This document shows positions 2-39,000 of a stretch of 64,000 bases of DNA, piece after piece. Made by a program: the position numbers and the translations under genes. The stretch covers positions 32,001 to 96,000 of IMG/VR virus record IMGVR_UViG_3300044922_000175; one strand, given 5' to 3'. Below the pieces are notes generated by a model, which was not told where the DNA came from, searched no databases, and worked only from the letters and a program-made list of their open reading frames with translations. The DNA comes from a virus. How positions within the stretch are numbered: the first letter of the stretch is position 1; every line of letters begins with the position of its first letter.

Positions 2-466
2 TTCTTGCCCTAATGCTTGTATATAAGAGTCAATGATTCTAGACACGGCTTCAGGTTTTTCATCAGCTTTAAATTTAACTTTAATTTTAGCCATTCCTGA
101 AGCAGTAGGATTAACTCCTGAGTCTACTTCAATTCCTTTTATATTGTGTTCATATCCCTTCTTCTTAAATAGTCCCAGTAAAGACTTCTTAAGACTAGAT
201 ACTTCTTTCTCCTCATCCCCAAAAATTAATCTAGCTTCAAACTCTATGTCTAACTCATCTAGTCCAATAGAAGAGTGATCTGCTAGAATATAAAGAGGCA
301 CTAATAACTCCTTGTCTCCAATCATAAAGTTTGTAACTTTAGGAGTACCATCCTCATTAAAGTAATTTCGTAGAGCATTAATGTGTTGTCTTTCACTAAT
401 ACTCTGAGAAACCATAGCGGCCTCTAATAGACCGCCAACTAGTTCCTCAATGTTTAATCTTGCCAT
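2..466 (-). CDS. DUF2589-like protein, partner paralogue (3'-truncated by window edge; missing from ORF track)
   Basis: Translated by hand from ATG at 464-466: MARLNIEELVGGLLEAAMVSQSISERQHINALRNYF...LDELDIEFEARL...AKIKVKFKADEKPEAVSRIIDSYIQALGQE. Open to the window edge. The N-terminal (L/I)E(E/D)L helix mirrors the upstream DUF2589 gene. Confidence 0.6.
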   Translation of the reverse strand, partial: MARLNIEELVGGLLEAAMVSQSISERQHINALRNYFNEDGTPKVTNFMIGDKELLVPLYILADHSSIGLDELDIEFEARLIFGDEEKEVSSLKKSLLGLFKKKGYEHNIKGIEVDSGVNPTASGMAKIKVKFKADEKPEAVSRIIDSYIQALGQE

Positions 467-492
467 ACTACAAAACTACTCAAATTTTCTGA

Positions 493-1083
493 TTAAGATT
501 CTTTACTCAATGGAACCAAAGAAGGCTCTAACATTGCTGTAAGGAAGTCAGACAATTTAAGCATACCTTCTGTTGGAGGCAACTGTTCTGCGTGTACTTT
601 TACTTCGTACTTAGCTGAGTTATCTGTTTGTCTAGTATTCTCACGGTGAGAACTTACGCTACCAGATACTTTAGCATTAAAACTCATACCCCACCATTTG
701 CCACCTGCAGATACTTCGTAAGCTGTTTGAGAATCATTAGATTCTTTAGACATGTCTGAGGTTTTTACTTCCATAGTAAAGTTAATATCAGCAGAAGTAA
801 TTGCTAAAGAAGGCAATGGAACTAAAGGAAGCATAGGAACTTTACTGTAAACAGTTTTAAGTTCTTGGATTCCTGTATCTCCATCTGTAAATACACGTTG
901 CATTTCTACGTCAAGTGAGCGTGCAACATTAGCATCACCTTTTTTCTCAAAAGCTACCTCAGAGATGTATCTCCAAGTTACTTCATTTAATTTAGCTTGT
1001 CCTTTTGCCATTCCGACAATAGGGCTTACAATAAGGTCTTCAATAGGAAGTCCTCTAAATTGATCTGCAATTGAATCTGCCAT
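493..1083 (-). CDS. DUF2589 family protein
   Basis: N-terminal FRGLPIEDLIVSPIVGMAKGQAKL, central VPMLPLVPLPSLAITSADINFTMEV and C-terminal TDNSAKYEVKVHAEQ match my recollection of the DUF2589 pattern. Confidence 0.75.
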   Translation of the reverse strand: MADSIADQFRGLPIEDLIVSPIVGMAKGQAKLNEVTWRYISEVAFEKKGDANVARSLDVEMQRVFTDGDTGIQELKTVYSKVPMLPLVPLPSLAITSADINFTMEVKTSDMSKESNDSQTAYEVSAGGKWWGMSFNAKVSGSVSSHRENTRQTDNSAKYEVKVHAEQLPPTEGMLKLSDFLTAMLEPSLVPLSKES

Positions 1084-1111
1084 AATTTATATATTAGTTT
1101 GTTTTATTTGG

Positions 1112-1315
1112 TTATTTAAATTTAACTGTACCACTGTACGATTTCTTGACACTTTCTATTTCTTTAATTGCAGAATAAAAGGAAGTTTTTATTTCTTCAT
1201 TTATTGTGAAGTTAAAAATAGTGCTGCAGTGTGGACATCCTGATTTAGGATTCTTTAAGATAAACTTTAGGTCTAAGCCTAAAGGTTCTTTACACATAGG
1301 ACAGGGTATAGCCAT
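1112..1315 (-). CDS. Small zinc-ribbon protein
   Basis: Two CxxC pairs (CPMC, CPHC) in 67 aa, followed by a helix. Confidence 0.7.
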   Translation of the reverse strand: MAIPCPMCKEPLGLDLKFILKNPKSGCPHCSTIFNFTINEEIKTSFYSAIKEIESVKKSYSGTVKFK

Positions 1316-1317
1316 AA

Positions 1318-1668
1318 TTAAGAGTTATTTGGGTTAGATAATGATTCTCCGTCTTCTTCATCTACCTTTTGAATTAACATTTTGTCACGGTCTTCTGAGT
1401 TAAACCAATAGTCAACTACCTTGTTTAAGTTACCTACAAAGGCACCAAAAAGAATAAGTAACATTTCTTTCCAGTTCTCTTGGATTTCTATTCCAAAAAA
1501 TACTGCAGAGTTAATACCAAGGATAATAAAGAAGAACAAACCTAATACAATTGCTGTAATCTTCCAACGGTTGGCTTGCATTTGTTGTAGCATGTAATAG
1601 AATCTGTTCTTAGGATCTACTACTACTGGTTCTGCTTGGTTAAGACCAAGTGCTTTTTTAATGTTCAT
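1318..1668 (-). CDS. Two-TM membrane protein (holin-like C-terminal motif)
   Basis: Hydrophobic segments ITAIVLGLFFFIILGINSAVFF and MLLILFGAFVGNLNKVVDYWF. 4-nt overlap with the upstream gene. Confidence 0.65.
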   Translation of the reverse strand: MNIKKALGLNQAEPVVVDPKNRFYYMLQQMQANRWKITAIVLGLFFFIILGINSAVFFGIEIQENWKEMLLILFGAFVGNLNKVVDYWFNSEDRDKMLIQKVDEEDGESLSNPNNS

Positions 1669-3557
1669 TTGTTTACGACAATTTTAGAATGTAATACTTC
1701 ATGCTCTGTTACTACAGTAAGTACATATACACCATCAGATAACTGACTTAGATTAGCACTATACTTATACTTACCTGCAGGCATCTTTTCATTTAGAATA
1801 GTCTGTATGCGTCTTCCTACCTCATCAGAGATAGCTACATCTACATCAGCATCTTGTTTGATCTGGAATTGGATCTGTACTGCTCCATCTGTAGGATTAG
1901 GGAATACGATAATAGAGTTAAGATCATTTAAAGAAACAACTCCTTTGTTAATCCTACGTACTTCTATGATACCCATAGCAGGAGTAATGTTCATATCTTT
2001 AGACTTAGCATCACCTACGTATTTAGCACCAGTCCATAAAGCTGCAGTAGCCCAAGAGTCTTGTGGTTTCTTAGCGATAAACTGAAGAGTAAATACTTGC
2101 TCTCCATCATTTAAGAGGTTTTCATTAGTTAAGTCAGCACCTCCCCAAGATACTATACCGTTAGAAGGGTTTAAGTAAGAAGTCCACTTCATCATCTTCT
2201 CGGTGTTCTCTACTTTCTTAAACTCTAAGTAAGCAGTATCATAACGTAAGTCTAATTGAAGTGCACCTAATTGCTTGCCATCTGTAAGAACTTTAACAGG
2301 AACGTTAACTAAGTTACCTTCATCTACAGTTACTTTAGGCATGTTAATCTCAATAGTTTCTGCAGGGAAATCATAAGACACAGTCTCATCAATGATGTAA
2401 CGCTTAGCATTAGCTGGGTTAGTAATCTTGATAGGAGTCAAACGAGCCATCTTAAATCCTGTAGAGTTTGCATCTCCTTTAACAGCTACGTAGTAAGTGA
2501 TAGAATCACGACCATCAATAGTGTAGTTAAAGTTGTTAATCGTAGAGTAAGTAGAAGTTAGGTTAGTAGCTGATCCGTTAATTGAATTGTATTCAGCAAC
2601 TGTGAAGAACATTACATCTTTCTTAGAGTTAGGCCAAGCTGAGAATCTACCTGCTAAACGTCCGTACACAGAGTATACGTCAGCAATAGTAATAGAACCA
2701 TCAGTGTTGTTTACATCCATTGTGTAGTAGTCAAATCCAGAAGGAGTGTATTGAGCTAAGATAGATTGGTTAATCTTTTGTGCATCTGCAGTAGAGAATA
2801 CGTTACCAGGAGTCATTGTATCTCCCTTAACTACCATACGTACATCCCAGTAAGTAGTATCTAAGAATTTACGGAATACTACAACACCACTAGAGTTAGT
2901 TGCTTTAGCTTCTACCTGAGTCCAAGATCCACTAGGAGCTTTCTTCTCTAAAGACACCCACAAGTTCTTAGCGTCAGAACCTGTTACGTTTTTAAACTTA
3001 GCAGCAAATCTTAATACTTTTTGGTTAAAACGACCACCATAAGAGTAAACTACCAAAGTAGTATCGTTACCCCAGTTAGTAGCAGCTTTGTTAGCAAATG
3101 ATTTAACACCTGCAACTTTCAAAGTTTTAATAGAATCTAAAGTATTCCATGTTGAGCTTCCTGCGTGCGTGAAGGTTAAATCAAAGGTAGCTCCGTTAGA
3201 ATAGTTGTAAGTAGAGCTAGATCCAGTGTAAGCCAAAGTTACTGTCAAGAATCCTTGTGAGTTACTATCTACGTACTGAAGATACTGATCTGTAGTAGAA
3301 ATCTTCAAAGAAGGAACTACACCAGTGAATGCAGTGTTATCGTAGAATACACGGAATTGCATACCAGTGATCTTCTCTGAAGTAGAAGTGTTATAGAAAT
3401 GTAAAGGTGCTACTGTCTGTCCTGCAGTAGTAGTAGCAACTTGGTAACCAGAATCAATCACAACCCAGTGACCTGTACCTGGAGATGTGCTAGAACTTTG
3501 CGCAAACATTACTGTTGCAAACAAAGTAGTGACAAGTGAAGAGATAAATTTTTTCAT
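1665..3557 (-). CDS. Secreted cohesin/dockerin-like protein with type IX secretion (Por) C-terminal sorting domain
   Basis: Sec signal MKKFISSLVTTLFATVMFA|Q. Cohesin-like ITGMQFRVFYD and LGALQLDLRYD domains. Dockerin-like STADAQKI...MDVNNTDGSITIADV. CTD IIVFPNPT...ISDEVGRRI...LSQLSDGVYVLTV...KIVVNK. Confidence 0.8.
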   Translation of the reverse strand: MKKFISSLVTTLFATVMFAQSSSTSPGTGHWVVIDSGYQVATTTAGQTVAPLHFYNTSTSEKITGMQFRVFYDNTAFTGVVPSLKISTTDQYLQYVDSNSQGFLTVTLAYTGSSSTYNYSNGATFDLTFTHAGSSTWNTLDSIKTLKVAGVKSFANKAATNWGNDTTLVVYSYGGRFNQKVLRFAAKFKNVTGSDAKNLWVSLEKKAPSGSWTQVEAKATNSSGVVVFRKFLDTTYWDVRMVVKGDTMTPGNVFSTADAQKINQSILAQYTPSGFDYYTMDVNNTDGSITIADVYSVYGRLAGRFSAWPNSKKDVMFFTVAEYNSINGSATNLTSTYSTINNFNYTIDGRDSITYYVAVKGDANSTGFKMARLTPIKITNPANAKRYIIDETVSYDFPAETIEINMPKVTVDEGNLVNVPVKVLTDGKQLGALQLDLRYDTAYLEFKKVENTEKMMKWTSYLNPSNGIVSWGGADLTNENLLNDGEQVFTLQFIAKKPQDSWATAALWTGAKYVGDAKSKDMNITPAMGIIEVRRINKGVVSLNDLNSIIVFPNPTDGAVQIQFQIKQDADVDVAISDEVGRRIQTILNEKMPAGKYKYSANLSQLSDGVYVLTVVTEHEVLHSKIVVNK

Positions 3558-4003
3558 TTTTTTATGTTATTTACAGCGTGTTCTATGAGCCAAGGCTCAG
3601 GATTTTCTAAGTTTTTTATAAAGCTAAGTTCATACATGTAGCAAAATGTCTCCTCTTTTTCCGGAATCATTTCTATACCTTTCTTTGCTATATAAAGATG
3701 TAAGCTTTCATGTACTAGAACTACAGCAATGTTATTTATAGAGTTTAGTTTAAGATCGGCTACAGCTATGTAGATGTGACCTTTACCATTCTCTAGTTCA
3801 CAAGAAGAGTAGGGACTTATCATAAAAGATACCTGAGAACAATTTGTATCAAGCATCTTGTACTTATCTATGTCTACCTTCTTTATCAGTTGAATTGCTG
3901 AATCAACTTTTAAATCCCAACCGTCCCCAGCTTTGTCAATTTTGATTTGAGCAAAACAAGGGACGGCTAAGAATAAAAAGAGGTTAATTACTAACCCCTT
4001 CAT
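3554..4003 (-). CDS. Putative exported zinc metallopeptidase (HExxH)
   Basis: Signal-like N-terminus MKGLVINLFLFLAVPCFA|Q, VLVHESLH motif and downstream EE as candidate third ligand. Confidence 0.6.
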   Translation of the reverse strand: MKGLVINLFLFLAVPCFAQIKIDKAGDGWDLKVDSAIQLIKKVDIDKYKMLDTNCSQVSFMISPYSSCELENGKGHIYIAVADLKLNSINNIAVVLVHESLHLYIAKKGIEMIPEKEETFCYMYELSFIKNLENPEPWLIEHAVNNIKK

Positions 4004-4006
4004 AAA

Positions 4007-4594
4007 TTATTTAATGTCTTTAGACTCAATAAGAGTGTAGGTAAAAGAGTTACCACCCAATGTAGCAGCTTTCTTACAGATTGCCATGAATGCATCAAAG
4101 TCAGCAGACTTCTTGAACACTTGGCATCCTTCAGACCAGTTCTCCACGTAAGTAGAATCTGCACCAGCTTTATGAATGTTAATACCGAAGATGCCTTCTT
4201 GTATCTTAGATTCATCATAAGTCATGTCTTTGTTAGCATCACGGTAAACCTTTACGTTTGCCTTTTGCTTTAACGCTTCATACTTACCTTGGTGTAATCC
4301 TACATGGTGTGAACCACTGTATTGACCAGGCACTAAGCGTGCAACACCAGCAGCATTGTGAAATTCTTTAACACCCTTAGTTCCGGGATCTGTAGTAGCA
4401 GGCCAGATTTTAAATTTCCATTCTCCATTTTCTTTGTAAGAAAGAGTTAAATGATCATCAAATACATTAGTTACTTTGTTACCAGTAGAAGAATTACGTA
4501 CACCAATGATATTTACATTGAAGTCACCATTCTCAAAATACTTGTAACCTTTGGCTTTCATTGCAGCCTCAATTTGTTCTCTAGTATAGCTCAT
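4007..4594 (-). CDS. Putative endolysin with L,D-transpeptidase (YkuD-like) His/Cys catalytic motif
   Basis: GINIHKAG (His at 4172-4174) ... NWSEGCQV (Cys at 4124-4126). Lies directly after the holin-like gene. No signal peptide. Confidence 0.65.
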   Translation of the reverse strand: MSYTREQIEAAMKAKGYKYFENGDFNVNIIGVRNSSTGNKVTNVFDDHLTLSYKENGEWKFKIWPATTDPGTKGVKEFHNAAGVARLVPGQYSGSHHVGLHQGKYEALKQKANVKVYRDANKDMTYDESKIQEGIFGINIHKAGADSTYVENWSEGCQVFKKSADFDAFMAICKKAATLGGNSFTYTLIESKDIK

Positions 4595-4631: not shown

Positions 4632-4880
4632 TTACTCCTCAGTGTTAGCTTCTGGCTTCTTCATGATTTTCTCAACAGAAGTCAAACCTAAACAACCAAA
4701 TGCAAGCAATGCTACAGCGTCCACTAAAGGAACAGAAGGAGCAAAGTGTGCTTCAGTAAAAGAGTTAGCATACAAAGTAGCGCAAAGAGTAATAGTGCAG
4801 ACTAAGCCACACAAGCGCTTCATGGAAACGGAGCCTTTTTCATCTTTGAAAAGACCACCAATAAAGTTTAATAGTTTCAT
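4632..4880 (-). CDS. Putative holin
   Basis: 82 aa, two TM segments (RLCGLVCTITLCATLYA; LVDAVALLAFGCLGLTSV), SMKR before TM1 and a charged C-tail. Precedes the lysin. Confidence 0.65.
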   Translation of the reverse strand: MKLLNFIGGLFKDEKGSVSMKRLCGLVCTITLCATLYANSFTEAHFAPSVPLVDAVALLAFGCLGLTSVEKIMKKPEANTEE

Positions 4881-4986: not shown

Positions 4987-5142
4987 ATGATAGGTATAAG
5001 TTTCCTTCCAAAACAAGATGTACTCTTAGGAGTAAATGTAGATCTCCTCAACTATGAGGAAAACGGTAAAATGATTGAAGCAACAAGATTATCCTTTGGA
5101 ATAATCTTTATCACTTTATGTATTTTATTTAAACACAAGTAA
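4987..5142 (+). CDS. Small 51-aa protein with hydrophobic C-terminus (below ORF-track cutoff)
   Basis: MIGISFLPKQDVLLGVNVDLLNYEENGKMIEATRLSFGIIFITLCILFKHK*. Fills the intergenic gap, preceded by a -7 element and followed by a hairpin. Confidence 0.5.
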   Translation: MIGISFLPKQDVLLGVNVDLLNYEENGKMIEATRLSFGIIFITLCILFKHK

Positions 5143-5148
5143 AATGTA

Positions 5149-5164
5149 GGGGGAGAAATCCCCC
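5149..5164. terminator. Probable bidirectional intrinsic terminator
   Basis: GGGGGA-GAAA-TCCCCC hairpin between the convergent stops at 5142 and 5166, with AT-rich flanks. Confidence 0.7.
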
Positions 5165-10457: not shown

Positions 10458-13400
10458 TTATAAATAACATCTTTTTATTTGTTCTACAAAACTATTCTGA
10501 TTACCACCACTAGTATTTACGTAATCTTTGTACTGTTCTACAAAATTAACAAATGAGGTAATATTTAAATCTTGTTTTATTTTTTCTTTTTGTTCATCTG
10601 TAAGTTCATTCATATAGAACTCATTAAGTACTGGGTATTCTGCTTTAGCTTTAAGAACAGCTCCCATAGATACATTAAATGCGGCAGCTGGTGCACTTGC
10701 TAACATAGCATCAATATCTCCAAATTCTTCAGTTTGTTCTTGAGCTTTAGGTGTTAAGGTCTTAGCTAATTCTTCAGGTGATTTTGCAGTTGTATCAAAA
10801 GGTTTACCATCTTTTTCATATGTAATTTTCTTACCTTCAGTTTTAACAGTAATACCATTAGAAGCTAGAGTACTTGATATATTAGCTGGAGCTTTACTAA
10901 AATCTATATTGGCTAATTGTTTATCTATACTTTGATCAAAATCTATATTATTTAAATCAGAAAATGCACCAGGATTATTAGCTACATTCTTATTTCTTCT
11001 ATTAGCAAAAATACCTGTAAATGTTGGTAAACTACCAGGAATTACAAAGCCTGCAGCAAATTGTTTTCTAGAACCAATAGGATCAAATTTCTCATACTCA
11101 GCAGATACACCAAACGCATACATGTCACCAGGTTGAATAAGATCAGCTAAGTTTTCCTCTTGTTTAACTCTATCTCTCTTTATAGTTTTTAATCTATAGA
11201 AAGTTTTTTTATTAAATGTATAGTCTATTGTTTTAAGTACTATAGGAAAACCTATTTGTGTTTTACCATCTTTACTCTCTTGTACTAAGCCTGCAATTCT
11301 TAAATAGTTTAAGTTATACCTATAGAACTTTTTACCTTCATCAGATAATCTGGATTCTCCAGGTAAAGCTACCATAGGTTGTACAATCTGATAATTACCA
11401 TTCTGATCAACTATCATCTCATCACCTTTATAGTTAGATACGTCACCCAAAGGAATTAACTCTCTTTCAAATGTGGTATTTTTAAATACATTAATCTGAA
11501 TACCAGTATCAGTTGTAGTAATTGGTGATTGTATTTTAGTATTTTCTGGAATATCTAATTTTTTCTTAAGTTCTTTAACCTCATTATTCTTAGCTAAATT
11601 TGTTTTTAGTGTTTTTGTAAAGAACGTTGTATTAGAACTTTGTAAGAATCCTCTAACAAACTCATTGTATAATTGATTAATACTTGCACCAAATGTCTTT
11701 TTAACAAAAGCATTATCAGCGCTTCCTTTTAATGCATTAACTGCAGCACCAGAGGAGTTAAGAATCATCTCAAACATAAAGTTTGGCATTACTCTAATAA
11801 AAGATCCAGACTTAAACTGACCGCCATCTTTAACAAGTAAGTAATGGAATAGATCAATTGCATAAGGTCTAGTTAACTCATTAGTATATAACTCCATAAA
11901 GCTATACTGAATCTTGTTAAGCTGTAATTTACTTAACTTGGTCCAGTTATTAAAGTCTACTTTATTAATACCATCTTTGTTAGATTTATTAGCACCAGTA
12001 ATTGCAAATAAGAATTTGTTTGCAAAATAGTTATTAGGACTTAACTCTCTTAACTTCTTAACTACATCAGTTACATTATCCATATTTTCAGGTAACGTGC
12101 TTGCTGCCTGGTCATAAATCATTCCATTATTCAAAGAAGCTAATGCTCTTTTATAACCACCTTTATTTAGAATGTTTAGATAAGCTTTGATTGCAAAAAA
12201 AGAAATTAAGTTTTGATCTAGTGACTTCTTAAAGTTTTTACGGTCCCTAAAGTTAACTTCTGTATTTGCTAATACTATATCGCGCATTCTATTAACTACA
12301 GGTGTACGGTTTAACATTACACTACCAGTTAAAGATCTAATTTCTCTATATACAGTAAAGTTAAATCCAAATGTAGTATTCTGATTACGTAGTAAAGAGC
12401 GAATATCAAATGGTATTGAACTAGTTTCAAACTCTTTGTCAGTCATCTCTAAACCTAAATCTACAGCTTTATCATAAATCTCATCAAACTCTGTAAGATC
12501 TTTAGGTAGTCCCTTATTTACTTTTAATACTGCAGATACATTCATAAAAGTATCTGATTGAAGATTTAAAGTTTTAAAGCTATTAAGTACATATACCTGA
12601 ATTTCAGGAGTATTTCTTTTAATACCTGCAATAAGATCTGCTGTTGTAATATTAGTAGGAATTTCTTTTACATCATACTTTTCTATTAGATTCTTAATAA
12701 TAGTATTCTTACTTACTTTTCTTTCAGCATCTGTAGCATATGAAGATTTATTTGTTCTTAAAGTTTTATAGAACTTACGTATTGCCGGTTGATTGATGAA
12801 TAGTAAGCTATCCTCTAATGATACACCCTGTGCTACCATATTAGCTACAACACCTAATGAATCAATATTAAGATTTAACTTAGCAGCAAGACGTTCTTTA
12901 GCATTATCCGTCATTGCTGATACTAAAGCAGACAAAATATCAGCTATCCTTTTACCATCATATTCTCCAGTTTTTGGATTATAAGCTTTAGTTTCACCAT
13001 ATGTATCAAACTCTTTACCATTAAGTTTAAATCTTAATGTTTTAAGTTCTATTGTCTCACCTGTTTCATCTGTATAAGAACTTGCTTTTCTAATATTAAT
13101 ATTATTAGTATTTAATAATGAATAAACAAGTAGAGAGTTAACTGCCGGTCCAATGTTTCTAGCACCTTCTTTGTTATTTCTAAATGCATAGTACTTACCA
13201 AGTAAAGTATCAATATTATATTTACCTTCTTCCAACTGATCTTTAAGTTCAGGAAACTGCTCGGTAAAGCTTTTAACAATATTAATAAGAGGATCTACAG
13301 TGGCTACCTGGAATGCTTTAGGAATCTCCCCTTCTTTTGCAGTAACCATATCTGTATTATTTAATAAAGCAATACGAGCATTTACAATGATATTGTTAAG

Positions 13401-16400
13401 TGCTCCTTGATAAGGTTCATACCCTAACTTTTCTATTTTAGTATTATACTCATCTGCAGTAGATGGTAAATTTAAATATTGTAAAGCTGCTTTAGTAACT
13501 TCTTCTTGATTTATATAATCATCAAAATAATCAGAGTCTGAAATATCTATATCTAATTCCTGTAAAGCTTCTAGCTCATCAGCTTTTTCTTTTTTAAGAG
13601 CACTATAAAACTCAAAATATGCTTTCTTAAATTCTTTATTCTTACTAAACTGATATTTTACAAACTGATTGAACTTTTCTGTTTTAGTAGTTCCACTACC
13701 ATAAGCTATAAATTTGCCATTCTCTACTAACCATTCTTGAATGGCTATGTAAAGTTTATCAATATCAAAGTCAGCTCCAGATATCTCAATAAGTTCTTGT
13801 GGAAATACTGCAGATGATCCATAGTATACCGGCATAAAGTCTACAAGTTTAAGAGCTACTGCAGAGTGTTTATCCTGTGAAGGAATACGTACTCCAAACA
13901 TTTTAGCTACAGCATCTGGTATTTTATCACCTGGTTTAATAAAGCTTAATAACTCTTTAAAGTGAGCTGGCATAATAAACTCAGTAAAGTATCCGGTAAT
14001 CTTACCGTTCTCATCATACTCAGGTACGTTATGTCTTAAATCATCTACATAATAATCACCTACTTGTAAATCATTAAAGGTTCTATTTTCTAGATCAGAC
14101 TGAGTTTTAGGTGTACCATATTTAGAAGGATTAAGTTTAAATTCTTCAACTCTTATAAGCTCCCATCTTTTTGGTTGACCATTCTCATCTAACTCTAATA
14201 CTTTTTTAAGTTGTTTTACACCATAGTCAGATACCAATGCTACAGCATGTCCTGGAACTTTTTCAGATAAAACACCTTTAGAGAAATATGATAAGAACAA
14301 CTCAACAAACTTGTCAATAGTAATGGGTGAGTTAAGATCATATTTAGGTTCTCCTTGCTCATCTAGTTCAAAGAACTCAATCATTTGAGCATCACCTGCT
14401 GAAGATTTTAATGTTTCAATAGCATATTTTTGGAATGCTGCAAGTTTAGGAGTTACTGTCCCAGCTGCAATAGATTTTTTAACCTCTTCTAATCCTGAAT
14501 CTAAAGTAAAGATTGCATTTCTTTTTTCAAGATAATTGACTTTAACTCTATTAAGAGATGAATTTTGATAAATCTTTTTAAGGTCTCCAACAGAAATGTC
14601 GGTACCCATAAAGTTAACTATTGTTTCATCATTTTGTTCAGCTGTAAGAATTGTTTTAATCTGAGTAGTATCTGTAATTTTAACTTTATTAGAAGGGTTC
14701 TCTAATTGTAATCTCCAATACTTAGTACTAGTCTCAATAAAGTTTCTATCAGTAATACTATTTACATCACTAGCTACATTTGTCTTTTTACCTTTAGATC
14801 CAGATACAGGAATTGCTAAACTTACAGTTTCTCTATCTTTTTCATATGCTTCAAGTGTATTACGCAAACTATGTAATTCTTCTTTACCAGGTAATGCATA
14901 TTGAAACTTATTACCATAAGAAGTAAATTCTTTAGTTAATACAAAACCAGAGGTCTTAATATATGTTTGACCGTCAAAGTATACTAACTTAATTGAGTTA
15001 GTAGCAGCATCAAATGATACAGCACCTTTTTGAGTACTATCACCAAAGAAGAAATCACCAGTTACTGTTTCACCATTTTCAATTTTGTTTAATAACTCAG
15101 CTTGAATAGGAGATAATTTACCTAAACCAAATAATGTATAACGTAAAGCTTTTACAGTCATCCACATCTGAGCATTTGCTTTTTCTCCTTTACCACCCGC
15201 ATATTTAGCTTGAAATAAAGGATCAGAAAGAGTAACTATATGTGCAGTTTTAAATGCATGTTTAATACCTAATCTTTCATCTGTTATAATAGCTTCAATG
15301 TTAGCACCAGTAGCATTAGATCCCTTAGCTCTTTTAACTTCATCTACGGCATCTTTAAATGATATAGCATGGTCACCATGCATTAATTGGTTAATAGCTG
15401 TAGTATTGATAAAATCATTTACATATATCTGTAAAAGATTATATCTGTAATCATTATTTTTTAAATTAAAAAAACTATTTTTAGTTATATCTTCTTTAGC
15501 TTTCTTCTTATCTTTTTCTTTTATAGTAAAACCTTTAGTTACAAAAGATGCTAATGCAGATTTAGTTACTTTTCCATCCTCTACTTGTAAAATGTTATCC
15601 TCATCTAATAAATCTATTAGATAGTTTACATCATTAAGCATAGATTGAGTCATCTCTTTTTTAATCTGTGCTTTTTGTTTTTCTGTTAAAGGTAAATTTT
15701 CTTGAGCTTGTGCTTCTAATTCATTCTTTAAATCTTCACTTATTAGTTTACCAGTCTTAAATAAAGTAAGACCACGCATTTTACCAGTATTAAAGTCATA
15801 GATCTCATCTATAAACTCACCATTAGCTACTCTTTGAATACGAGTATACTCCTGTTCTACAAAACCAAGCATTGCGTTTTCTGCTTGTTTTGTTAAAGTA
15901 TTTTTACCGGATGCTTTAGCAGCGGCTTTAATTATAGGTAAGTTAACTACATTACCAGTACTAGATGCTTCAAGGACACGAATAAGATGGGTGGATGTAC
16001 CAAACTTAACTTTATTTCTTTCTTGTACATCTCCGGTAGAATATAGATCAAGTAAACTAACAATAAATTCTTCAGGGGTAAAACTACCATATGTAGTTCC
16101 TTCACGTCTGTTAACCTCAAGTTGTTTATTTTCAATTACATCACCATCTTCTGTTTCATTAAGACTACTTACTTTTTGTCCATCAATTCTTTTAACTGTA
16201 ACTAAATCAAGAGATGCTAAGAAGTTTGGATCATTTAATAAATAGTTATTTGCTAAGAATGGATCCTTTAATAACTCTTCAATACCACCGGCTTTCTTAA
16301 TCTCATTTATCTTAACTAAGTGATATGATGGTAATTGGTGTACATATACTAATTGCCCTTCTGCATTTTTCCAGCTAGTAGCATATACAGACTCATCAAA

Positions 16401-19400
16401 TATGGCATTTGCTTTTGCAAGATTATATAAACGTGTAGTAGCACCACCTTCTAGTACTTCTGTTTCTGGAGTAACTTCTCCTGTTTCAGCATCTACAGTT
16501 ATTTCATACTGAACATTAATAAAAGGATTTTCTTCAGTATCTACTAAATCAGATAACGCATCTATATCTTCTATAGTAATTGGTGTTACGTTAGAATATA
16601 TCTTAAATAATTTAATTTGCTGATCTGTAAGAGTAGTTATATTATTTGCAATAGAATAAGACAAATACATACCACTTAAAGAAATACCTAAAGTCTCCAT
16701 TAATTCTACAGATAACTTATTAGTTACCTGGATTAACTCATCATCAGTATATTTCTTAGTTGGTGCCATTGCTGTTTTAATCTTAGTTAAAACAAGTTTA
16801 GCTTTAGCTTTTGATTCAGGAGTTAACTTACTTTCATAAATATTACTATATGCTTGTGACCACTGATCAAATTGCACTTTACCAGAATCTTTTCTATTTG
16901 CAGAAATAATATTTGCAATCTCTTTTTTAAGATCCTTATTGATAAACAAATAGTCAATGGCATACTGACCAAAACCTTTTGTAAAAGATTGGAACAAATA
17001 ACTATTTTTAACATTAGAGAGATCAGGATTACCTTCTTCATCAAATGTTACTCCGGTCTGAATAAAGAATTCATCAATGACTTTACCAGACTCAAAGTTT
17101 CTATCTTTATATAGATTAAGTTTTAAAAGAACTTCATCAATAGTTTCAGTTCCAGCAATTGCTTTAAGAATACCATTGTATACAGTAGAACCATCTACTG
17201 ATTGAATATAAGGCGTACCATCTAAAAATTGTACATTACCAAATTCATCAGCTGCTTGATATGTAATAGTAGATATCCAAGATCTTAAAAACTTAGATAA
17301 ACTACCAAAACCACCTACACTAGCAGCACCCTCGGTATAATTCTGCTTACCTCTTTCTCCTAACTCATCTATAATATCGTCTGAAGCATCTTGCTCATTA
17401 GTTTCTTTAATACTTAAAATAGCTAAATGCTCACGTACTGCCTCCTTAAGAATTTCTCTATTTTCAATTAAGCTAAATATACTTCTATACTCTTTTAATT
17501 TAGCAATTTCTTTACTTTTAAGATCTATATATTGTTCTAATTTTGGATTATAAAGTTCTTTATAGTCATTTAATATTCCATCTAATAAATCTTCTGTATT
17601 AGTTTGCTTATCTGCATCTTTAAGTTTGTTATTATATATAGCAGCTACACTTGCAGATAATCTAGTACCCTCTTGTTCTGGTAAATACTTATCTACTCTA
17701 ATAAGATTAACTTCACCTTCAGCAGCAAATGTAGAATCTTCAATGACATCTGTACCAATTTTAATAGCTTTAAGTACTGGTTCACTGATATCAAATGGAG
17801 AGTCTGTATATCTATTAGTAACTACCTTACTATTTCTATACTTACCGGCATCAATATTGTCAAATAAAGAGTTTAATTCATTCTTACCAAATCTGCTAAA
17901 TACTTTCTTAATAAGCTCAACAATTTTAGCAAACAAACTTTTGTTTACATGACTAGTCTCTGTTTTTTTATTAATCTTCCAAGCTTCAAACTTATCAGCA
18001 AGGTACTCTTCATACATTCTCTCTTCTAACTGAGACTCACTCATTGCTGCATAAAGAGGATTTAATAAGCGCATCTCTTCTTTAGCCAAAGAGAATGACT
18101 TACCTTCTTTACGCAACTGATCCCTTAACTCTTTTTTAGCAATTGTTAAGTATCTAGATATCTGAGCATCACTTAGTAATAAACGAAATACTGCGTGGAA
18201 AGCTTCATGATATTTAAAAGGAGAACTAGCAGATGTATATATAGTACCGTTAACTTCTACATTACCAGCTACATTAGACAATGAAGATACAAATGCACCT
18301 ACAGTCTTACTACCATTATATAAGTTATTCTTAAGAGTATTTAGATCTTCTACAGTTATAAAGTCTGGAAGATTGTTTTGTACCCAGGTTAAGAACTCAG
18401 TTAAGTTAGTTATATCAGATTCAGTATAACCAGCATCTACTACTTTTAATCCTATAGAATTAGATAATACTTCAATCTGACCTTTAATAGCTAATACCTC
18501 TGGAGAGTTTTCAGCTTGTGTTCTAATCTCTCTTTTTTCAGCTACAGTTAATTCTTCACCTTTTTCAGCAAATCTTTTATCTCTTAATTCATCATCAACC
18601 TCATCCATTTTATCATACAGTTCAGCTTGTAACTGTTTAATTTGTTGTGGAATAGATTGTTGAGCAGCTAATACTTTATTTAAAACATCTGCAGAACTTA
18701 CTTGAATAGGTTCTTTAGGTTTTTCAGTAGGTTCAGTAACGGGAACAACTGGAGGATTAACCGGTGCAACACCTCTTAATAAATCCGGATTAGATGTAGG
18801 ACTAGTAGGAGCTGAACTAAAGTCAATATTACCAAGGGCACTATCTAATACCGAATCATCTACTTTTGGTAATATAGGATTAGCTTGAACATCAGAAGCT
18901 GGCTCAAGCATATCTAGATACACAGATACATCTTTAACCACATTAGTTCCTACACTGGCTTCCATATCTAAAACCTGCAGCGTATCAATAGTCATTGGCA
19001 ATGCTGCTTTAAATGATCTACCAGTAAGGATAATATCCATTTTATTGGCTGGTAATTTTACATCAGCATCATGCTCTTTAATTGCAGTATTTAATAAAGA
19101 AAGTAATTCTGAAAAAGTATTAAACTCAGGATCATTAATAATCCTCTTACGAGTTATTTTATCAGTTCTAGAATTTTTATTTACAAAGTCTAAAACTATT
19201 GATCCATTAGGACTAACATAAACATCTAAGAACTTACCTTTATCTTTTAATGGTAAAGAAATAAATACCTTATTGCCAATATTATCTTCATTCCATACAT
19301 CATTGTATTCCTGAGCTAATGGTTTAGCTTCTTCATCTAGATTCTCTTTCTTAGTTAACTCAATTCTTTCTTTAATACTAGCAGCTAAAGTATTTAGCTC

Positions 19401-22400
19401 TTCAGAAGAAAGCTCTGGTGTAGTTAACTCAACAAATCTAACTTTACCATTAGGTAGTTTAACAACAGCTACATATCTACCATAGTTAAGTAAAGTATCA
19501 TAACCACTTTTGTATCTGGCATCATCAACTTCTTTAATGGTTGACTCTAATAAATCAGGATCAATATCTGTAATAGGAGAACCTTCTACAGTTATAATAG
19601 AACCATTCTTATATTTATTCTTTCTATCAATTACATAGATACCATTATTAATAGTGTTATATGCTAATTCAGAAAGTTTTGGTCTTTCCTCATCACGAGA
19701 TAGGAACTCATAAGATCCTAAACCAATATTAACATTTGCAACCTTCTTAAGATCTGAATAAGAAATCTCAACAGAATCGCTGCTACCTAATTTAGATTTT
19801 AAATAATTTAATAAAGCAACTTTGTTTTTGTAACTAGCTTTTATATTAGCAACAGCTTGATTATATCTACCATTCTTTAAATAGAAAGCTTGCTTAACTC
19901 TATCTGCATTTATTCTATCATAAGAGATAGGATTACCATTTACATCTAAGAATTGGAAAGATGTAGGGTTAGGTAAGTAACCAATCTCTTCACCATTAAA
20001 TACTAATGCAATTGCATATGAATCAGTAAATAAACCAAGTGATTGATTTTCTTTCTGATCTTCTAATTTAAGGTAGGCATATCTCTGAGGTGATTTATTT
20101 AGATTAGTAAATCTAATACTTAATCCCTTTTGTAATTGTTCTATGGGAGTATCTCTTAATAAATTACTTAGACGTGCTGTTGCATCTTTCTGAGATTCAC
20201 CCTCCATTCTTTTACCCCAAGCTTTATCTAATACACTAATAGAATCAAACCTTGATGCGTATTCTTTTTTGTCAATAGGAGCTCTCTCTAATTTAAATCC
20301 AGTAAAAGATTTAGTAGTAAGAACGGCACCAGTTTTAACATTCTTAAGTTTAAGATTAGAACCAGCAGCAATTTCTGCAGGATAAGAGAGCACTATATAC
20401 TCATTGTTTTTTGTATCTGATATAATCTGTCCATTAACTAATGGAACATTATCAAATACAAACTCCTTTTTATTTTTAGCTAAATAGTTACCAATTCCTT
20501 TTTGTGCTTTCTGAGCTTCTTCTAAACTTGTATAAGCATCTACCTCAAAAGGTATTAACTCATCTGGTTTATTTGTTGCATTAATAGCATTAGTACCATC
20601 ATTTAATTTTACAAAATAAATATCTCCAATTTCTGCACCTTCAATAGATCCGCTAAGCTTAGTTATAAATACACCATTATATCCAGGTGAAACAACGCTT
20701 TCACCCTCTTCTAATGCTGTAGTAACGTATTGATTCTCATCTCTTTGTTGAATAAAGATATCAGAGAATGTTACATTATTTTTATTTAATACATCAAAGA
20801 TTAAAGGTGTTCTAGCATTAGTTCTTAGCCACTCTGTAAACTCAGGTTTAGTTTCTGTAATGGCATCATACGTTCCTTCTAACTCTGTAATAGCATTAAT
20901 AATACTAATCGCTTTTTTACTTGTTACAAACTCTTCAAATGATACAGGAATATCAGCTTCTCTTAAAGTCTTTAAGTAATCATCATAAGCTCTACGTACA
21001 ATTGTCTGAGTAAACTCACTTACATCTTCAATATCTTCTGAACCAAATTCTTCCTCTTCTTCTGTAGTATCTGTAGAAAATTGAGATGGCTCTTTGGGTT
21101 TAGTATTAGATGGAGTTTGTTTTACTTCAACTTTTGTTTTTACTTCAAACTCTGATACAAAAGCTTTAATATTCTGAAATCTAGCATCTTCTACACCAAA
21201 TAATTTATTGCTATTTAAATCTCTAAACTTTATATCTGGATCAGTTAGAATGAGTTCTTTAAGCTCATCAAAACTATTTGTTTCTAAATTCTTTAAATAT
21301 TTAAGATCAATAACAAATCCACCAGCAGCTAATGATTTTAAGAATATACCAATCTTAGATGTTTCAGCATATTTCTTAAATGCTTTCTTAAAGAACTCCG
21401 CCCTTCTTTTATCTCTAGCAACAATTAAAGTGCGCTCTCTTTGAGCAAGCTTAATAAAATTATTAGGATCATATAAATCAGACAGAACTTTGTTAAAATT
21501 AGTCTTATCATAATTAAGCGCATAGTAATCAGTAAAGATTCTATAGGCTTCATTTAGATCTGCAGGATTAAGTGTAGTACCTTTCTCATCTAAAAGAACC
21601 TTCATGTAATCAGTAAAGGCTTTCTTTAAATAAGAGGTCTTTCTTACTTCTACAGGATCATTAATATTCTCAATACGGGCAAGATTAGTTTTTAAAGATT
21701 CTAAAGCTTTTAACTTCTTCTTCTTATTATTAGTAATCTCAATAAGAGCTGGATCAGTTATATCTTTACTTGAATCAATTTCTGCAGTTAATAAGTTTAT
21801 TTCTGTATCAATACTTGGAATACTCAAAGTAGCTGTAACATCAGAGTAACTTAAATTACCAACTCCTGCAATAGATGACATCTGTTTTGTCAAATCAGCC
21901 ATGCGAGTTTTAGCTTGCTCTAAACCATGCAAACTAAATACTGCAGTTTTACGGGCCTCTTCAAAAGCTTTATGGTTTTGTAACTCATTAATAAATCCAG
22001 TAATAGCTTCGGGAGTATCAGCAAATTTATATGTATTAGGATTATAAGGATTCTTAAATGCAGAAAACTGCTCATACTGATCTTTAATTTGACCAGCTCT
22101 ATCAATAGTAATATCTAATACTTGCTTTGCTTCTTCATCAGTAACATCATCCTTTAAATCAAATGCCTCTTTTAATTCTTCACCAGTCATTTGTTTCATA
22201 TCCTCTAGTTTCTGAATTAAGAAATCAAACTTATTAGTTTGTAGTGCTGTATAAACACTATTAAATCGAGCTATATCCTTAAGATCGTGGAATGCTTTTT
22301 CATCAAATGATTTTCTAGCATTAACCATATCAGTACCTGCTTTAATTTGTACTAATAAGTTATCTATATCAAGAGCTAAAACTTTATTACCATTATTAAT

Positions 22401-36000: not shown

Positions 36001-39000
36001 TTACCTAAATGAAGCTAACAATTTGTTATTACTGAGCTTCAATAAGAACTTAGATGAGCCAGAAACAAGTTTCTTTAATATAACCTTGTTAATGTAATGT
36101 CTAAACTTCTTTCTTTGTGTAGCTCCCTTATTATAATTTACATAACTTGTATTAATATTCCTAATATAACCGTTGGCTTCAGTGGTCCACATGGGTACAA
36201 AAGTCCCAGTAAATTCACCACGATCATTAGTAATATCCCAGAACTGATTGAATCTATACTTCTGTTCTTCTTTAGAGAATAGAATATCAATATCACTAGT
36301 ATTTACTAAAGGATAGTTATTAATTAAGTAAGGATTATTCTTAGGAGATAGGTTTAATATTAGGTCCCCAGAAATTTGTTCTGTGTTATATACAATAGCC
36401 CGATCAAAGTTCTCATCTAATAGATGATGATAATCTAAACAGTTAGGAGAATACTTATAACACTCTAAAATATATTCTACTGAACGGGTTGTTGTAACGG
36501 TTTGACCTTGGTTCTGTACATACTCAATCTCAAATGGATAGTCAACACCATAGTAATTACAATAAGAATTACATACTAAGTTATGTTTCCAAATGGTATT
36601 ACCTTTAACAGTCATGTAGTATGTCTTACTAGCCATTACTAAATCCGGATGCCAGTCATGAAAAGATATAAAAGCTTTAGCTTTAGGATCATAACTAACA
36701 GTCCATGATACATTATCAAAATATGTAGGATCACCTAAATTAATTATTAATCCTGCATACTCTGTAGATATGAGTTTGTTCTGTGCTCCGGCTTTAAATT
36801 TATTTTTAAACTCAGGTTTTAATTTATAGTCTTTCTTACAGAAATAAAGAATCTCATTTATGTTATCATAGGTAGTTTGTAGTCCAACTCCAATAATTGT
36901 ATTATCTAAAACTATAGGATCTAGATCAGGAAAATCTTCAAGAACAGCATAAGGACTGTATTGTGAAAACCACCACTTCATACCAGACTTAGAAATGTCT
37001 TGTATTCCTTGACCAAAAGAAAATACCTTTCCTTGGTTTTGGCTTGCATAAAACAATCCAGCTGGAGTATTGATTACAGATAATCTATTCTGACAACTAC
37101 CATATTCAAACTCAGGATCTACGTTTATTACGTTTTGTAAAGGTTGGCCGTTAAATAACTGACCATCACCAATAGTTAATTTAGTTCCACCATTAAGATC
37201 TAAAGTTTCTGCACCTTGGAATATAATAGGAGAGCTATCATTAAACATAATAACTGCACCAGTTTTACCAAAGTTTCTCATAGTTACAACCTTAGAATTA
37301 AAGTCGTAATAGTTATTTGCTAAGAACTGTCTCCAGTTATCTTTTCTTAATTCATACTGTTGCTGTAAAGAATAAAGAACTCTTGTATCATAAGAGGTAA
37401 AGCAACTTATATTATTAGGATCATATATTCTTGGTTGAAGATTACCCCATGAAACAAAGTTTGATACATGCTTACTAATACTTAAAGAGTAATCATACTT
37501 ATAGTAGTTTGTATCTTTAATATAAGCAGCATTAAACAACTGTTCATAATCACTATATGTTTTAAAATCGTAATGTCTTTTACCAGGATTATCATCATGA
37601 TCTCTGTATGCTAAGTTAATTTCTGACTCTACATAGAAATCTCTAATACCAGAATTAAACAAATACATATAAGCAAATCTAACCATCAAGAATCCTGAAG
37701 TCATTCTTCTATCAAAGTGATGATAATCATTAGGTAAAATGCTATCACTGGTTGGCTCAAAAATAATATCTAATAAATCGCCAACGTTATACTTTCCAGT
37801 GTTCATCCAATATCTTGGATAAGGAAGCATGTTGTATAATCTATAATCCCACTCTGTGCTATCTGGTAAATTCTGCATCCACTGAGTAAAATAGAAGAAT
37901 GTAGATTTTTCAGTGTAACGGTTTACATACATGTCTCCACCAAATACTAAACCAGAGGTAGCTTTAAGAGCTTTATTAATAGTCCAAAGATTTATACAGC
38001 CCACAGGTATTTGTCTAATACCATCTAATTGACCATATAAATTATCATTCTTAATTTTTAAAGCAGCGTAGTGAGCAGAAGTAACAGATGTTTGAGTATA
38101 TGCTTCTGGTTCTTTCCAGATATCTTTAGCATTAAAAGGTTTACCTTTATCATCTACACCATAAACACTTAAATCAGGCCTACCATTTTGTGAGCGTGCA
38201 ATATGACCAATAGTAAATAAAGTATTGTCTTTAGTTATTGGATCATTAATTGTTCTTTCAGTAGTTAAGACAACAGTATTTGCTCTATATAAATTATTAA
38301 TCTTATAGATAGTATCATAGTCTTGAACAACAGGATCAAGATATAAAGAGTTCTTAATACCTCTTCTTCTACTACCAACTGCAGCTTTTATAAGATTATT
38401 ATAAAAACCATGTGATACATATTGATAAGCAAACTGTCTTTTTTTACCAATGGATTCTATGATATCAACTATATTTCTTGTTGATTCTAACCAATAATAA
38501 GATACTAAAAATGCTTGACCTATTGCATAAGCAGCTGCGCCAGCAAATGCTCCAACTACTGCGCCTGATGCACCTGCTACTGGTGTTCCTATAATGCCAC
38601 CTAAAGCAATTGTCATAAGAGCAGCCTTAGTTTGATCTGCAAAATTTCCATTAGCCGCATTGGCTGCAGTTACACCAACAGCAACACCAGCTAGTGAGGA
38701 AAGTATTACAGCAGTGTCTGTTATAAATTTATCTTTAGGATGATTCTCAACCGGAATAAATCTACCAATTACATTACCGTATACCTCACCATAAACTTTT
38801 AATTCTGTGGCAGATAAAAAAGGATTTCTAAATGTTGTCTCAGGTGAGTGAAAAGAAAAGATATCCCGCTTAACACCATCAAATAATGTAACATCAACAT
38901 TACTTAATCCAGTGCTATCATATTTATCTTTATCTCTAAACGCTCCACCCTTAGTTTGTACACTTCTATTACCAGGTCTATCTAAAGTAGCTTTATCTCT

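Follow-up and report, generated by a model that had tools for sequence, protein, structure and literature searches.

Six genes that directly follow a holin-like gene and a lysin gene in an uncultured phage raise the question of whether they form a single envelope system or an assembly of separately inherited parts, and of what the two DUF2589 proteins among them might do. The locus lies at the start of a 64,000-nucleotide stretch of DNA (the window, by which we mean the whole stretch analysed), bases 32001-96000 of the IMG/VR virus record IMGVR_UViG_3300044922_000175, which is 125,939 bp long and is rated complete by CheckV; the host is probably a bacterium with a type IX secretion system (T9SS). 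The stretch is composite: lysis genes are followed by a Module 1 and a Module 2, and the six genes straddle both. Module 2 consists of a zinc (Zn) ribbon, the DUF2589 pair (A and B; with the Zn ribbon, the trio) and a small membrane protein, d86.

Nearly all of the large open reading frames (ORFs) of this phage lie on the minus strand, and so do the genes of the block, which are given here from the holin-like gene downstream with the basis of each assignment (TM, transmembrane; AF2, AlphaFold2). Locus L003 is the window start plus 15 kb beyond it, a window coordinate being the L003 coordinate minus 15000.

4632-4880, minus strand: holin-like protein of 82 aa, family f4 (ORF, hydropathy, family alignment)
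4007-4594, minus strand: lysin of 195 aa, a signal-less YkuD-fold endolysin candidate (PHROG, AF2 model, Foldseek)
3554-4003, minus strand: HExxH protein of 149 aa, Module 1 (signal-peptide-like N-terminus, motif)
1665-3557, minus strand: cohesin/T9SS cargo protein of 630 aa, Module 1 (Pfam, NCBIfam)
1318-1668, minus strand: two-TM protein TM116, 116 aa, Module 1 (hydropathy, alignment)
1112-1315, minus strand: Zn ribbon of the form CPxC...CPxC, 67 aa, Module 2 (four invariant Cys)
493-1083, minus strand: DUF2589-A, 196 aa, Module 2 (PF11655)
2-466, minus strand, running 4 nt past the window start (full gene L003:14996-15466): DUF2589-B, 156 aa, Module 2 (PF11655)
L003:14734-14994, minus strand: d86, 86 aa, TM segment and coiled coil, Module 2, outside the window as the next gene downstream of DUF2589-B

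From the lysin on, the genes are separated by a 3-nt gap, two 4-nt overlaps, a 2-nt gap and gaps of 28 and 26 nt, and the same-strand run continues beyond the window edge with d86, d109, d232, d492, d383, d153, dCTP deaminase and PhoH. Gene order, sizes and spacing were all confirmed as given in the original prediction, which had been made from the sequence alone, and its description of tightly packed, co-directional, envelope-related genes behind a plausible holin and endolysin holds as well. It had seen no obvious terminator in the block, and every minus-strand terminator-like match that we found there falls inside an ORF.

The prediction had gone further and taken the six genes for one co-regulated envelope system, with a surface part, a transducer in the membrane and a pair of cytoplasmic effectors, that would mediate superinfection exclusion, surface remodelling or outer-membrane disruption. 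The tight packing on one strand without an intergenic terminator favors this view, as does the fact that TM116-family genes adjoin the trio in neighbourhood types 1, 3, 5 and 6, so that a functional contact with Module 1 is possible. However, the two sets of genes proved separable when we compared 85 loci (L003, four from a contig search with the encoded proteins and 80 from IMG/VR) using tblastn, all-against-all clustering and iterated hidden Markov models (HMMs). L135 and L136 contain all of Module 1 but no DUF2589 gene: the HExxH, T9SS cargo, TM116, d109, d232 and d492 genes occur there in the window order with 54-96% identity, d492 is followed by a d383-like or lectin-type gene that matches d383 only locally, and Zn, A, B and d86 are all absent. 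Conversely, L015, in which A is 94% identical to that of the window, has the order holin-lysin-Zn-A-B-d86 without Module 1; about 10 other neighbourhood types likewise have Zn-A-B-d86 without Module 1, and the trio has neither HExxH, T9SS cargo nor TM116 beside it in L015 and in most other types. Among the 85 loci, the HExxH gene and close copies of the T9SS gene are confined to near relatives of the window phage, and a distant gene of the T9SS family (22-28% identical) is found in L013, L016-19 and L047. Moreover, none of ten block proteins had a match in PADLOC-DB 2.0 at E<=0.05, which leaves superinfection exclusion without support. The original prediction had named independent occurrence of the genes in unrelated neighbourhoods as the observation that would speak against it; this is what we found for the six genes as a set, but not for the Zn ribbon with the DUF2589 pair, and we consider a single six-gene system very unlikely.

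In the window phage, the approximately 1.9 kb of Module 2 (Zn-A-B-d86) lie between TM116 and d109. Because these two genes adjoin each other in L135 and L136, we resolve the block into Module 1 with Module 2 placed within it, a position that we read as an apparent insertion; no flanking repeats were seen at the junctions of Module 2. The corresponding junction in L136, between the TM116 and d109 homologues, carries a terminator-like hairpin (L136:5117-5215).

The trio itself is remarkably constant in composition. The Zn ribbon, A and B occur together in 82/82 untruncated loci, and in the 3/85 loci that lack the Zn ribbon, the contig is cut at the relevant end. The genes nevertheless come in three different orders (Zn-A-B, A-B-Zn and B-Zn-A), and across about 17 neighbourhood types, identity amounts to 70-79% for A, 52-88% for B and 48-64% for the Zn ribbon. 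The types include T4-like phages, identified by a neighbour that matches Gp23 with E 3e-76, and contigs of up to 334 kb. The Zn ribbon with A and B is a real functional unit, in accord with the part of the original prediction that concerned these three genes. A fourth gene, d86, accompanies the trio in five neighbourhood types, once on the opposite strand.

What recurs next to this unit, in phages, is genes for lysis. In 5 of the approximately 17 types, the trio lies no more than three genes from an f4 holin-like gene, an endolysin gene or both. Apart from L015, the arrangements comprise f4, a TM protein, the trio and GH19 in L021-23; TM116, f4, the trio and d232 in the L043 group; f4, GH24, d86, the trio, AdoMetDC and a YkuD-type lysin in L084/85; and GH19 followed by the trio in L086. 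Type 5 has the trio immediately beside the holin-like gene, and L015, L021 and L086 have it immediately beside the lysin; f4 homologues precede the trio by at most two genes in types 2, 4 and 5 and by three genes in type 7 (L084/85). The lysins in these positions have three unrelated folds, YkuD-type, GH19 and GH24, the latter two confirmed by Pfam. In two further types, that of the window included, holin-like or endolysin genes lie within 6 kb.

Bacterial genomes provide a second line of evidence. We used an even sample of 401 Pseudomonadota genomes and, simple ORF picking being unreliable at high GC, described neighbourhoods by same-strand ORFs and a tally of their Pfam matches. DUF2589 genes were found in 11 of the 401 genomes (2.7%), ten with 2-3 clustered copies and one (G028) with a single copy; a culturable carrier of the bacterial cassette is Ferrimonas kyonanensis DSM 18153 (L092/L125). 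Among the 145 same-strand ORFs within 3.5 kb of these clusters, Pfam identified GH19 twice, GH24 once and GH25 once, and, regulator domains aside, no functional class other than hydrolases recurred. Viewed from the hydrolases, the 11 genomes, about 51 Mb in total, gave 18 GH19, GH24 or GH25 matches, of which 6, in five genomes, are no more than 4 kb from a DUF2589 cluster, against a chance expectation of about 0.04, given that only about 0.2% of each genome is that close. Wall hydrolases are thus enriched beside DUF2589 clusters, and the link to lysis that the original prediction had drawn is backed by both phage and bacterial neighbourhoods. The hydrolase gene is directly downstream of the DUF2589 pair in L121, L128 and L129, and the products in L128 and L129, which have a clear start, lack a signal peptide; in the chromosomal cassette L090, three DUF2589 genes stand beside a weak GH19 match. 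No holin was recognised in L090, L128 or L129, although no search was aimed at holins. In addition, a metagenomic protein of 484 aa (P0229, L088:2514-3968) fuses Amidase_2 to DUF2589-A, the only fusion of this kind seen, on a contig of 4.5 kb in which an assembly or gene-calling artefact is possible; the contigs that encode P0129, P0165 and P0184 were too short to inform on gene context.

These neighbourhoods also bear on the notion that A and B are structural proteins of the virion or of its assembly. In the T4-like contigs, the major capsid gene (Gp23) immediately precedes the trio, which in another type adjoins acidic scaffold-like genes, and the very high conservation of the trio could reflect assembly constraints. 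Yet the same genes are also found on bacterial chromosomes, at a distance from phage structural genes, and have no PHROG or structural-protein match; tblastn with A against 50,697 GenBank phage records (E<=1e-3) gave no match. The position after gene 23, furthermore, is a site that commonly takes accessory inserts in T4-type genomes. A structural role appears to us the most improbable of the explanations considered.

The proteins of the trio offer some clues to function. As predicted originally, the two DUF2589-like proteins are divergent: against PF11655 (cut-off 23 bits; 154 model positions), A reaches 106 bits with an alignment to positions 1-151, and B reaches 51 bits with one to positions 2-153. 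B is a paralogue of A with 22% identity that lacks a hairpin insert present in A, and no A-B fusion occurs among 270 fetched proteins. At E<=1e-3, the homologues of A fall into 1012 representative clusters. The Zn ribbon has four invariant Cys, as expected of the CxxC-CxxC ribbon described in the original prediction; the ribbon has a helix-like C-terminal tail, and its weak PHROG matches are only to families of unknown function. None of the three proteins has a signal peptide or a TM segment, and because none carries an export signal, they are predicted to be made in the cytoplasm and to be cytoplasmic proteins.

The AF2 model of A, with a predicted local distance difference test (pLDDT) score of 74, consists of a helix (residues 14-44), a sheet and a long hairpin formed by strands 93-112 and 149-167, the tip of which (114-149) is of low confidence. 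Over 56 homologues, the tip comprises about 40 residues, of which 53% are Ser, Thr, Gly or Ala and 19% are charged; hydrophobic residues alternate along it, and its aromatic-Gly turn is conserved. Its period-2 hydrophobic moment exceeds that of shuffled sequences modestly, with a median z of 1.8 and 61% of the homologues above 1.64 (n=56). Judged by this pattern, the hairpin would be amphipathic and of membrane-spanning length. The fold resembles no solved structure: the best Foldseek match in the PDB has E 0.57, a wide comparison with VIA peaked at Z 4.7, BFVD yielded only another DUF2589 homologue, sequence and profile searches of the PDB found nothing, and the ESM Atlas was uninformative. 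The literature on DUF2589 consists of two passing mentions, with nothing functional.

We tentatively favor, with a confidence a little short of an even chance, the interpretation that Module 2 encodes a lysis-associated pore or membrane-breaching complex. Under this model, the Zn ribbon, A and B would be made in the cytoplasm, where A and B would form a hetero-oligomer; upon a late trigger, the amphipathic hairpins of A would enter a membrane and form there a pore or lesion of the beta-barrel type, the hairpin-less B and the Zn ribbon would serve as scaffold or brake, and d86 as a membrane anchor. Lysis of Gram-negative hosts is taught as the work of a holin, an endolysin and a spanin, and we know of no experimentally shown spanin in any Bacteroidota phage. 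About 15% of phages lack spanins, and gp28 of phage phiKT, a 'disruptin', represents a spanin-less variant of lysis (bioRxiv 10.1101/515445). The lesion made by the trio could act at either of two steps. It might let signal-less wall hydrolases cross the inner membrane, a target suggested by the three bacterial cassettes without a recognised holin (none was specifically searched for). Alternatively, after release through holin holes, the complex might breach the outer membrane in place of spanins; a later step of this sort is suggested by the holin-like gene in the phage cassettes, by analogy with the phiKT disruptin.

Several observations weigh against this interpretation. About 10 of the 17 phage types lack a visible lysis gene within 8 kb, the trio there being beside the major capsid gene, a DNA ligase gene or unknown genes. 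As the fold of A matches nothing solved, the pore idea rests on a sequence pattern, and the amphipathicity of that pattern is modest; nor does the literature on the family help. Trio-bearing phages usually also have a holin-like gene, so that a holin-replacing role is not needed there. Likewise, the window phage has the i-spanin-like d86, with its TM segment and coiled-coil-like tail, and the lipoprotein d232, the genes of which are neither adjacent nor embedded, so that a spanin-replacing role is not required. Finally, the lineages are not fully independent, and the linkage between holin and trio could be inherited as one mobile block. The more ambitious proposal, that the Zn ribbon with A and B, joined by d86 where present, constitutes a new class of lysis or release machinery, in which a soluble hetero-oligomer of novel fold, made in the cytoplasm, would perforate membranes with a beta-hairpin barrel and provide an exit for signal-less hydrolases and progeny in tailed phages of several morphotypes and in bacteria, is doubtful at present. 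What can be said of the Zn/DUF2589 cassette is that it is an uncharacterised set without a matching fold and with a statistical tie to wall hydrolases; the mechanism is proposed rather than demonstrated.

A pore need not serve normal lysis. The cassette might instead be a conflict module, that is, a toxin of abortive infection or exclusion, or else a means of countering defence, that would be carried as a moron and form a pore in the manner of Pepco or gasdermin. Its patchy, mobile distribution would suit such a role, with presence in only 2.7% of the sampled Pseudomonadota and 70-79% identity of A across unrelated phage types, and so would the small size and beta-hairpin of A, given that Pepco are small cytoplasmic proteins that form pre-assembled beta-barrel pores (bioRxiv 10.1101/2025.11.14.688446); near one bacterial cluster, there is also a gene for a Tle1-like phospholipase of the type VI secretion system. 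The genomic context, however, is not that of a conflict system: the block has no PADLOC match, the surroundings of the trio in the 85 phage loci and the same-strand genes near the 11 bacterial clusters contain no recurrent gene for a protease or a sensor, and the neighbour that does recur is a wall hydrolase rather than a sensor. The HMMs for Trypco1 (PF19493) and Trypco2 (PF19631) found no match in the whole phage even at E<=10, and we rejected membership of A in the Pepco group on this ground and for want of an associated protease. A conflict role thus seems unlikely.

Conversely, the cassette might act in lysis without making any pore, by regulating its timing in the manner of an antiholin or a lysin chaperone. 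The trio co-occurs with an apparently complete holin and endolysin, all three of its proteins are cytoplasmic by prediction, and the small Zn-ribbon partner and the hairpin-less paralogue have a regulatory look. Against this stand the bacterial cassettes L090, L128 and L129, which pair DUF2589 with a lysozyme-type hydrolase in the absence of a recognised holin (again, none was specifically searched for), and the conserved amphipathic hairpin, which a purely regulatory role would leave unexplained. We regard timing control as distinctly unlikely and retain the membrane-breaching complex as the working model.

The two lysis genes at the head of the block are themselves assigned with different degrees of certainty. 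The 82-aa protein, encoded 37 nt upstream of the lysin gene, has two TM segments, a conserved DLFKDE+G motif and a K/E-rich charged C-terminal tail; it has no Pfam or PHROG match, and we take it for a putative holin. The 195-aa protein has no Pfam match but matches phrog_33083, annotated 'endolysin', with E 1.4e-12, and its residues H141 and C157 are invariant across 29 homologues. Its AF2 model (pLDDT 70) retrieved a YkuD-type catalytic domain in 12/12 best Foldseek matches, and re-alignment with VIA gave Z 5.0-7.6 for 38 YkuD-type entries before dropping to 3.0; PDB sequence and profile searches found nothing, and the ESM Atlas gave only weak leads. The GH24, Amidase_2 and SLT models hit no gene elsewhere in the phage; a GH19 model was also run against the genome, a search that had no positive control. 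Because of the PHROG match, the YkuD-type fold, the invariant His and Cys and the lack of a GH24, Amidase_2 or SLT gene elsewhere, we accept the protein, at the level of fold, as a candidate endolysin of the YkuD type (L,D-transpeptidase/carboxypeptidase). The family is very large, with all 8000 scored candidates matching, and includes homologues of about 50% identity in the crAss-like phages crAss002, cr8_1 and cr107_1 and in Bacteroides phages (DAC15-like and SJC03), nearly all of which are annotated as hypothetical. The fold assignment suggests the name of candidate endolysin for many of them.

Module 1 continues beyond the window edge, on the far side of Module 2, with four genes.

L003, beyond the window edge: d109, TM segment and Pro-rich tail
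L003, beyond the window edge: d232, lipoprotein of 232 aa, with an LAGC lipobox only in the lineage of the window phage
L003, beyond the window edge: d492, signal peptide, low-complexity region and beta-rich C-terminus
L003:11098-12249, beyond the window edge: d383, PA14 domain and a sub-threshold dockerin match

The seven-gene Module 1 comprises window positions 1318-4003 together with L003:11098-14729 in the window phage, and its counterparts are at L135:6001-12315 and L136:2395-8850. Every one of its products has an export or membrane signal. It follows non-homologous endolysins in two phage types, that of the window and that of L136, where the endolysin combines PG_binding_1 and GH19. Module 1 may give rise to an assembly that crosses the envelope or is exposed on the outside of the infected cell.

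In L135 and L136, too, the HExxH gene immediately precedes the cohesin/T9SS gene, and the motif is kept, as HES[LQ]HL, in 4/4 distinct homologues among the loci. The protein has no relative in Pfam, NCBIfam or the PDB by sequence, and none of its 458 homologues has a Pfam domain; the signal-peptide HExxH protein of the original prediction is a putative minimal zincin. The 630-aa protein, which is 71-79% identical in L135 and L136, has a signal-peptide-like N-terminus and was described beforehand as a cohesin/dockerin protein with a T9SS C-terminal domain. Its cohesin (49 bits, E 8e-13; cut-off 24) and its sorting domain, of type A (Por_Secre_tail, PF18962, 41 bits, E 1.9e-10, cut-off 27; TIGR04183, 36 bits, cut-off 23), are above threshold, but the dockerin is not: the sole Dockerin_1 match, at 17 bits against a cut-off of 22.9, is in d383. 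Residues 184-340 of the 630-aa protein align with residues 189-354 of d383 at 33% identity (E 2e-16), and this common stretch of about 170 residues, with its dockerin-like DxNxDG loop, hints at a phage-encoded cohesin-dockerin pair formed by the cohesin of the 630-aa protein and the loop that it shares with d383.

TM116, the membrane protein of the original prediction, is predicted to reside in the inner membrane. It has hydrophobic segments at approximately residues 35-62 and 66-82, its tail (DYWF..D+DKML.QK.DEEDG) is acidic and conserved, and its counterparts in L135 and L136 are 86-89% identical to it. Homologues such as L013:6828-7433 and L043:6605-7297, together with their relatives, have a C-terminal extension of about 100 residues with DxDGDG calcium-loop-like repeats and a CEHxWGD...ECxKCG motif. 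For d232 and d492, a CsgG-like and a PorP identity, respectively, were considered and discarded as unsupported, as the CsgG and PorP/SprF models have no match in the phage.

Upstream of the block, virion and tail-like proteins were found among the ORFs scanned, and the boundary is marked by one further feature.

5141-5164, minus strand: hairpin GGGGGA-TTTC-TCCCCC with a T-rich tail, read from the sequence, directly after the stop of the gene for a 1762-aa protein

An AT-rich non-coding gap of 285 nt separates this hairpin from the holin-like gene. Because the hairpin with its T-run and then the 285-nt gap follow the 1762-aa gene, the lysis/envelope block probably begins a transcription unit of its own, separate from the structural genes. 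Neither sigma-70 sites (37 versus 42 expected) nor the Bacteroidota -7 motif TAnnTTTG (85 versus 85 expected) are enriched. The 1762-aa ORF, the sole giant ORF scanned, has only a weak PHROG match. Other very large ORFs lie at 10458-24158 (4566 aa), 51307-58278 (2323 aa), 36001-40740 (1579 aa) and 58271-62821 (1516 aa), and the giant ORFs, that of 1762 aa included, resemble the giant virion proteins of crAss-like phages.

Taken together, these results show a phage able to carry a complete T9SS-dependent surface module beside its lysin, and a mobile, conserved cassette that, in phages and bacteria combined, stands beside five unrelated wall-hydrolase folds. The latter makes the cassette a candidate for a missing step of lysis or for holin-independent release, and it is small enough for simple expression and complementation tests.

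Among known systems, Module 2 is most readily compared with holin-endolysin-spanin cassettes, in that the window genes are directly behind a two-TM holin-like gene and a signal-less wall hydrolase, and with the phiKT disruptin, in that the products of the trio appear to be soluble and cytoplasmic and would reach the outer membrane only after holin action. Unlike the components of lysis cassettes, however, the three proteins of the trio carry neither a TM segment nor a lipobox, do not have the character of cationic peptides, and lack homology to any holin, spanin or disruptin family; they make up a set of constant composition in which two members are paralogues. Holin/endolysin-dependent ('type 10') secretion systems are domesticated bacterial lysis cassettes, and the combination of DUF2589 with a GH19, GH24 or GH25 hydrolase outside recognisable prophages is reminiscent of them. 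They differ in that we recognised no canonical holin in the few clusters inspected, where no search was aimed at holins, and identified no cargo, and in that the membrane-active part would here be a putative soluble DUF2589 complex. With Pepco and with the stems of beta-pore-forming toxins such as aerolysin and alpha-haemolysin, A shares small size, a Ser/Thr/Gly-rich alternating hairpin and an aromatic turn, and with Pepco it also shares predicted synthesis in the cytoplasm, a likeness that is one of functional analogy only; unlike these toxins, A has no fold match to any solved pore-forming toxin and is accompanied by a hairpin-less paralogue and a Zn-ribbon partner. Within DUF2589 (PF11655), a family without an assigned function, A and B are regular members above the gathering threshold and are paired as in the bacterial clusters, but the phage copies stand out by their unusual conservation (70-79%) and by the 67-aa Zn ribbon that always accompanies them. 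Finally, Module 1 resembles the T9SS cargo proteins and cohesin-dockerin scaffolds of Bacteroidota in the type A sorting domain, signal peptide and cohesin of the 630-aa protein and in the dockerin-like loop, and departs from them in being phage-encoded, directly after an endolysin, and inherited together with an HExxH protein, a lipoprotein and small proteins of the inner membrane.

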